This document shows positions 46,077 through 46,186 of a stretch of 64,000 nucleotides of DNA, in pieces. The notes beneath the pieces are model-generated. The model saw nothing but the letters and a program-made list of their open reading frames with translations. It was not told the origin of the DNA and did no database searches. Every line of letters begins with the position of its first letter. Position 1 is the stretch's first letter. The position numbers and the translations under genes were made by a program. Location of the stretch: the NCBI RefSeq assembly GCF_055900595.2, contig NZ_CM148325.1. One strand, written 5' to 3'.

Positions 46077-46113
46077 GGTAACCCCAATGGATTAAAATAG
46101 ATGGCGGAAATAA

Positions 46114-46141
46114 GTATGACGATTTTAAGTATTCGTCATAC
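46114..46141. promoter_or_regulatory. NikR operator (dyad GTATGA-N16-TCATAC) in the nikA promoter
   Basis: gtatgacgattttaagtattcgtcatac: perfect inverted hexamers separated by 16 bp, 38 bp upstream of the nikA start. Confidence 0.7.
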
Positions 46142-46186
46142 TGATAACCTGTTCTGGATCAATAGATGGGCAGTCGGATGGGCTGA

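Follow-up and report, generated by a model that had tools for sequence, protein, structure and literature searches.

The spacer between acpT and nikA is, with a probability that we put at about 97%, the canonical Escherichia coli promoter of nikABCDE(R), which is activated by FNR in the class II manner and repressed by NikR. The anatomy of this promoter, its identity with the K-12 sequence and its conservation were established in the present analysis; the binding of NikR, its nickel dependence and the occupancy by and dependence on FNR are taken from the literature, and we infer the occlusion of RNA polymerase and the exact transcription start.

The nik locus and its promoter spacer

The window, that is the whole stretch of 64,000 nucleotides that was analysed, contains the following genes of the locus:

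44502..46076, minus strand: nikA, an open reading frame of 524 aa, periplasmic nickel-binding protein (TIGR02294 nickel_nikA, 835.7 bits)
41161..44502, minus strand: nikB, nikC, nikD and nikE, ABC transporter permeases and ATPases (open reading frames and the annotation of strain Z0117EC0005)
40755..41156, minus strand: nikR, the repressor that reads the operator (NF002815, 235.2 bits; TIGR02793, 224.8 bits)
46187..46774, minus strand: acpT, the upstream neighbour on the same strand as nikA (NF007676, 394.4 bits)

The order on the minus strand is nikA, then nikB, nikC, nikD, nikE and nikR, with nikA, which is annotated under this name in the 100%-identical strain Z0117EC0005, as the first gene of the NikR-regulated operon. 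In the K-12 expression data cited below, nikR follows the anaerobic signal only in part, which fits the second, weak promoter known for this gene. The spacer itself (46077-46186) runs exactly from the acpT stop to the nikA start and measures 110 bp, as does the spacer in K-12. Since nikA lies on the minus strand, its promoter is read from right to left, and the region is bounded by the acpT stop codon, 24 bp from the FNR site described below. The following features were placed in the spacer:

46149..46162, minus strand: FNR site TTGAT-CCAG-AACAG (TTGATCCAGAACAG) in the class II position, with its centre at about -40.5
46114..46141, minus strand: NikR operator GTATGA-N16-TCATAC (gtatgacgattttaagtattcgtcatac), with the promoter-proximal half-site at 46114-46119 and the promoter-distal half-site at 46136-46141
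46122..46127, minus strand: putative -10 hexamer TAAAAT, read from the sequence, inside the operator spacer (positions 15-20)
46115, minus strand: probable transcription start (A), inside the proximal half-site, giving a leader of 39 nt
46110..46116, minus strand: candidate NarL-type heptamer TACTTAT, at about -1 to +6, overlapping the proximal half-site
46082..46085, minus strand: Shine-Dalgarno-like GGGG, 5 nt before the nikA ATG, proposed from the sequence only

The surroundings of the operon have a composition of their own. A convergent yhhJ follows directly after nikR (40747-40755), and the rhsB element, found after nikR in K-12, is absent here. Between yhhT and acpT, which adjoin each other in K-12, lies an aryl-polyene-type lipid/polyketide cluster (46776-61789) with ApeP/ApeI dehydratases, ketosynthases, a chain-length factor, two ACPs, an MMPL transporter, a LolA-like protein and a glycosyltransferase. 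The operator region is 100% identical in the dog isolate Z0117EC0005, and an identity of at least 99% is reached in only 16 genomes.

The NikR operator is that of E. coli K-12

A first-pass annotation of the window had reported the half-sites GTATGA and TCATAC separated by exactly 16 bp, 38 bp upstream of the nikA start. Both observations are correct: the half-sites occupy 46114-46119 and 46136-46141, the spacer between them is 46120-46135, and 37 bp separate the proximal operator edge (46114) from the A of the nikA start codon (46076, minus strand), a distance of 38 nt. Read on the minus strand, the operator is GTATGACGAATACTTAAAATCGTCATAC. The perfect inverted repeat has arms of 9 bp, GTATGACGA and TCGTCATAC (13 nt at 92%).

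The same annotation had called the dyad a known NikR site, and the comparison with K-12 bears this out. In an alignment of 210 bp, the 28-bp operator is identical to the nik operator of K-12 MG1655 at 28 of 28 positions, and the stretch from the FNR-like site to the ATG departs from K-12 at one base only, 46146 (about -31). The other intergenic differences are at 46178 and 46184, so that there are three substitutions in total, all of them outside the sites. The cognate repressor is likewise unchanged: the NikR encoded in the window (codons at 40758-41156), with its N-terminal ribbon-helix-helix and C-terminal Ni-binding domain, is identical to K-12 NikR at 133 of 133 residues and matches the PDB entries 1q5v and 2hzv, the latter being the DNA complex, over the full length. 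Because operator and repressor are those of K-12, the published K-12 biochemistry transfers directly. According to this literature, GTATGA-N16-TCATAC is located in the nikABCDE promoter and is bound by Ni-NikR with nanomolar affinity (PMC7055735), the same consensus being given elsewhere (PMC545781), and E. coli NikR represses a single target, nikABCDE, through this well-defined palindrome (PMC3177205). On the alignment, the dyad is thus the K-12 nik operator itself, which was already known, in a strain that differs from K-12 only in the flanking content.

One would argue that such a dyad could be a chance palindrome without any regulatory role, as looser matches to the pattern indeed occur at chance level (three with at most two mismatches in the window, 1.8 expected). 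However, the perfect 12-base palindromic pattern, for which a calculated 0.004 matches are expected per 64 kb, has a single match at zero mismatches in the 64-kb window, and this match lies in the right promoter. Additionally, it is the characterised K-12 site and is kept across genera. We regard a chance origin as having a practically negligible probability, and it is effectively refuted by the conservation together with the published binding data for the identical sequence.

Core promoter and probable transcription start

The hexamer TAAAAT would serve as the -10 element, judged by its spacing to the FNR site and by the published placement of that site at -40.5. The distance from the FNR centre (46155.5) to the first base of the hexamer is 28.5 bp, which corresponds to -40.5 if the hexamer occupies -12 to -7. 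The -35 region at a 17-bp spacing, AGGTTA, is poor and matches at two of six positions. The base at 46146 belongs here: on the coding strand it is T in this strain and in two sampled strains, and A in K-12 and in two others, and with T instead of A the already poor -35 match falls from 3/6 to 2/6. A promoter and terminator scan of 45900-46400 called neither a consensus sigma70 promoter nor a terminator, and an Rfam scan of the same interval (E<=1) returned no RNA family. As the nikA promoter is activator-dependent, the missing consensus promoter is expected and is not evidence against a promoter.

The start would be at 46115, because the published distance of 40.5 is counted from the FNR centre at 46155.5 (Myers 2013 Table 1). 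With this start, the operator extends from about -27 to +2 and covers both the -10 hexamer and the start itself. After offset mapping, 46115 coincides with the anaerobic sigma70 ChIP-seq peak at 3,611,651 (U00096.2) and the K-12 FNR summit falls at about 46161 of the window, the mapping using what we take to be a version offset of 1,977 bp, which could err by a base or two. The K-12 data indicate how strongly this promoter responds to oxygen: the sigma70 peak at 3,611,651 has a value of 69 under aerobic and 1897 under anaerobic conditions, a 28-fold difference (Table S2, PMC3688515), and the aerobic/anaerobic expression ratios are 0.03-0.06 for nikA-E and 0.35 for nikR (Table S12, PMC3688515). 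In the transcription start supplements of Kim 2012 a nikA entry was not found.

The FNR site

The first-pass annotation could not place the FNR half-sites of this promoter and proposed a scan of 46142-46186; the site is now located inside that interval, at 46149-46162. It consists of a perfect half-site TTGAT (46158-46162) and a degenerate one, AACAG (46149-46153), and it is hard to spot by eye because only a single half-site is perfect. Compared with TTGAT-N4-ATCAA, it agrees at 8 of the 10 consensus bases, both mismatches being in the downstream half. It lies 7-8 bp upstream of the operator, and its sequence is identical in K-12.

We judged the site by consensus mismatches, by the published PatSer score and by conservation. 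The window holds 56 FNR matches with at most two mismatches, about one per 1.1 kb, so that chance would put about 0.02-0.03 of them into the 45 bp of 46142-46186. As the match is weak by itself, the assignment rests on position, conservation and the K-12 ChIP data. In K-12, nikABCDE is among the operons directly activated by FNR and has one FNR site, at -40.5 (Myers 2013 Table 1, PMC3688515), and the nikA ChIP peak was found by all four peak callers, has a PatSer PWM ln p of -9.55 and is classified as Category 1 activated (Table S5, PMC3688515). The sequence of the nikA site is not given in the supplements of Myers 2013.

The count of 56 exceeds that in shuffled windows (34.3 +/- 6.2, none of 100 shuffles reaching 56), and this excess probably reflects AT-rich islands that are lost when the whole window is shuffled. 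A perfect FNR consensus, TTGATTTTTATCAA, is present at 7224-7237 in the divergent intergenic region of chuA and chuT; the chuT ATG (7116, minus strand) is about 114 bp downstream of it, and the Fur-box-like GATAATCATGATCATT follows at a short distance on the chuT side. FNR control would make sense there, since chuT-chuW-hutX-chuY encodes anaerobic haem degradation; a limited check of the literature on chu regulation yielded a mention only of the sRNA FnrS acting on chuS.

Conservation within E. coli

The operator shows practically no variation in E. coli. Of the 5426 complete genomes, 5425 contain the 310-bp region around it, in each case flanked by acpT and nikA. For the 30-mer at 46113-46142, 5299 of the 5425 genomes are identical over the length aligned, with the proviso that alignment trimming hides mismatches at the query ends, and the remaining 126 differ by one base. 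A 38-mer is identical in 5267 and differs by one base in 158. Operator-region variants were inspected in four E. coli genomes. One has A>G in the operator spacer, the second, strain EC23-1020, reads ATATGA in the distal half-site owing to G>A at its first position, the third has T>G just 3' of the operator and the fourth has two changes 5' of the FNR site. The 14-bp FNR core is intact in all E. coli variants sampled.

Conservation across genera

The comparison was extended to one genome per species with NikA, which gave 80 loci, 70 of them from Enterobacterales and 10 more distant. In 68 of the 70 Enterobacterales species the 300 bp upstream of nikA contain an operator with no more than one mismatch, and in 49 of these it is perfect. 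It also occurs at 6 of the 10 more distant loci (Rhizobium, Consotaella, Fulvimarina, Halomonas and a proteobacterial MAG). When the 68 promoters were aligned on the operator, three blocks stood out in rigid register between diverged flanks. The first comprises the NikR half-sites, together with an A-rich tract upstream and a T-rich tract downstream. The second is TAnAAT at operator positions 15-20, which is present in all 68 promoters (TAAAAT in 51, TAGAAT in 10, TACAAT in 5 and TATAAT in 2). The third is TTGAT, which lies exactly 21 bp upstream of the operator in 66 of 68 and at almost no other offset. The second FNR half-site is reduced to nnCAn or nnTAn in most of the 68 species.

The Rhizobiales loci and the MAG (L066 and L068-L070) keep the NikR operator, lack the FNR half-site and have a TTGAC-type hexamer upstream in its place. 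This distribution suggests that FNR control of nikA may have been added in the enteric lineage.

The conservation also bears on the possibility that the palindrome acts, additionally or instead, as an RNA hairpin followed by UUAUUU, which would terminate or attenuate read-through from acpT into nikA. The minus-strand RNA of the palindrome does fold, at -15.6 kcal/mol (z = -5.2 against shuffles), and only 45 bp separate it from the end of acpT, an upstream gene of the same strand, with no other terminator detected. However, any 9-bp palindrome would fold in this way, the loop of 10 nt is accompanied by a poor T-run, and the terminator scan makes no call. Furthermore, the half-site sequence is invariant in the 68 species and does not covary, and it is kept even in promoters whose upstream flank bears no relation to that of E. 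coli. The nikA mRNA itself would start within the distal arm, in which case the hairpin cannot form in the nikA transcript. Thus a role as hairpin is very unlikely, and as the main function it was rejected: it is the sequence that is conserved, rather than the pairing. The palindrome is best read as the NikR operator.

The edge of this operator raises another question. Repression of nikA that depends on NarLX is cited in the part of the literature that we consulted, where a NarL site is not identified (PMC2718512, citing Rowe 2005), and nitrate repression of nik could be direct, through NarL bound to TACTTAT at 46116..46110, over the start and the proximal NikR half-site. TACTTAT is a perfect TACYYMT; there are 28 such heptamers in the 64 kb, so that about 0.05 are expected per 110 bp, and a perfect heptamer is found at the same position in 22 of 68 species. 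Yet the NikR half-site dictates its TAC, and next to this comes the conserved T-rich tract, which mirrors the A-rich tract on the opposite side; about 12 perfect heptamers are expected from column composition alone against the 22 seen, in species that are not independent of each other. The inverted 7-2-7 pair of heptamers is absent from the nikA promoter. We therefore consider direct NarL control rather doubtful, and the heptamer match seems to be largely a by-product of the half-site TAC and the T-rich flank.

At 46154-46161, the N4 spacer of the FNR site is unusually well conserved: it is CCAG, which completes a GATC, in 43 of 68 Enterobacterales, and this Dam GATC within TTGATC is kept in 64 of 68, with flanks that are not conserved. 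Since the FNR spacer is thus conserved beyond the FNR consensus and a NarL-type heptamer lies on the start site, the nikA promoter might carry an undescribed extra input, either methylation-sensitive FNR binding or a direct contact with NarL or another protein, but we think that this is unlikely. The idea about the Dam site concerns the binding of FNR to methylated versus unmethylated TTGATCCAG.

In two Escherichia species the nikA leader or promoter is disrupted. In Escherichia sp. MOD1-EC7003 (L005, about 1371-1482) a 112-bp insertion separates the NikR operator from the Shine-Dalgarno sequence in the nikA leader; it is a dispersed, probably ERIC-like repeat, of which an E. coli genome has a median of 7 copies at about 85% identity, and its 3' end, AAGTATGACGAGTA, mimics a NikR half-site. 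In Escherichia sp. E1V33 (L002, 1100-1500) tandem repeats of about 100 bp, in which CCCTCTCCC and GGGAGAGGG are frequent, have taken the place of the FNR site and of the distal operator half, and only CGCCATACTTATTTC remains. This is a natural replacement of the nikA promoter, and the NikA encoded there is 99% identical.

Proposed regulation

The canonical reading as a promoter activated by FNR and repressed by NikR would work as follows. FNR, which is active only without oxygen, would bind at 46162..46149, with the site centre at about -40.5, and would recruit RNA polymerase under anaerobic conditions to a promoter with a good -10 and almost no -35, that is by class II activation. With sufficient nickel, GTATGA and TCATAC, which are two helical turns apart, would each be occupied by one of the two ribbon-helix-helix domains of the Ni-loaded NikR tetramer. 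The bound repressor would cover the -10 hexamer and the start at about 46115, so that polymerase would be excluded, presumably by steric occlusion, and nickel import would be switched off. As the -10 hexamer always lies in the operator spacer, bound NikR should occlude RNA polymerase. The net effect would be that nickel is imported only when the hydrogenases need it and when it is scarce.

The value of the site is that of a positive control only: a reader without tools correctly called an experimentally characterised operator. Its use as an internal control, which the first-pass annotation had recommended, is sound, the site being unique in the window, equal to that of K-12 and kept across the population and the genera. 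To that first reading we add the minus-strand orientation, the architecture with the -10 hexamer inside the operator spacer, and the location of the FNR site. Beyond the single strain, the comparison yields a cross-species footprint, in which the FNR half-site, the NikR half-sites and the -10 hexamer stand in rigid register across Enterobacterales.

Comparison with known systems

The nearest known system is the K-12 nik operator in PnikABCDE, which has the same bases, the same distance to the nikA ATG, the same 110-bp spacer after acpT and an identical repressor; apart from the three substitutions outside the sites, the difference is upstream of acpT, where this strain carries the aryl-polyene-type cluster and K-12 does not. 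The K-12 operator is that of Chivers & Sauer 2000, and PDB 2HZV is the complex of NikR with it.

The nikA promoter also resembles class II FNR promoters, for example those of dmsA, narG, pykA and ynfE, in which FNR is centred at -41.5 +/- 1. Here too the FNR site replaces the -35 element, and a weak -35 is combined with a good -10; in contrast to those promoters, however, the nikA site has only one consensus half-site.

NikR operators from other lineages are inverted repeats of about 27-28 bp bound by a tetramer with two ribbon-helix-helix domains (PMC545781), and the dyad described here shares with them a repeat of similar length that is read by a tetramer. The half-site sequence, however, differs from that of the delta-proteobacterial operators, GTGTTAC-N13/14-GTAACAC (PMC545781), and from that of the Helicobacter pylori sites. 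The regulators differ as well: H. pylori NikR has pleiotropic effects and is able to activate, in contrast to the single repressed target of the E. coli protein (PMC3177205).
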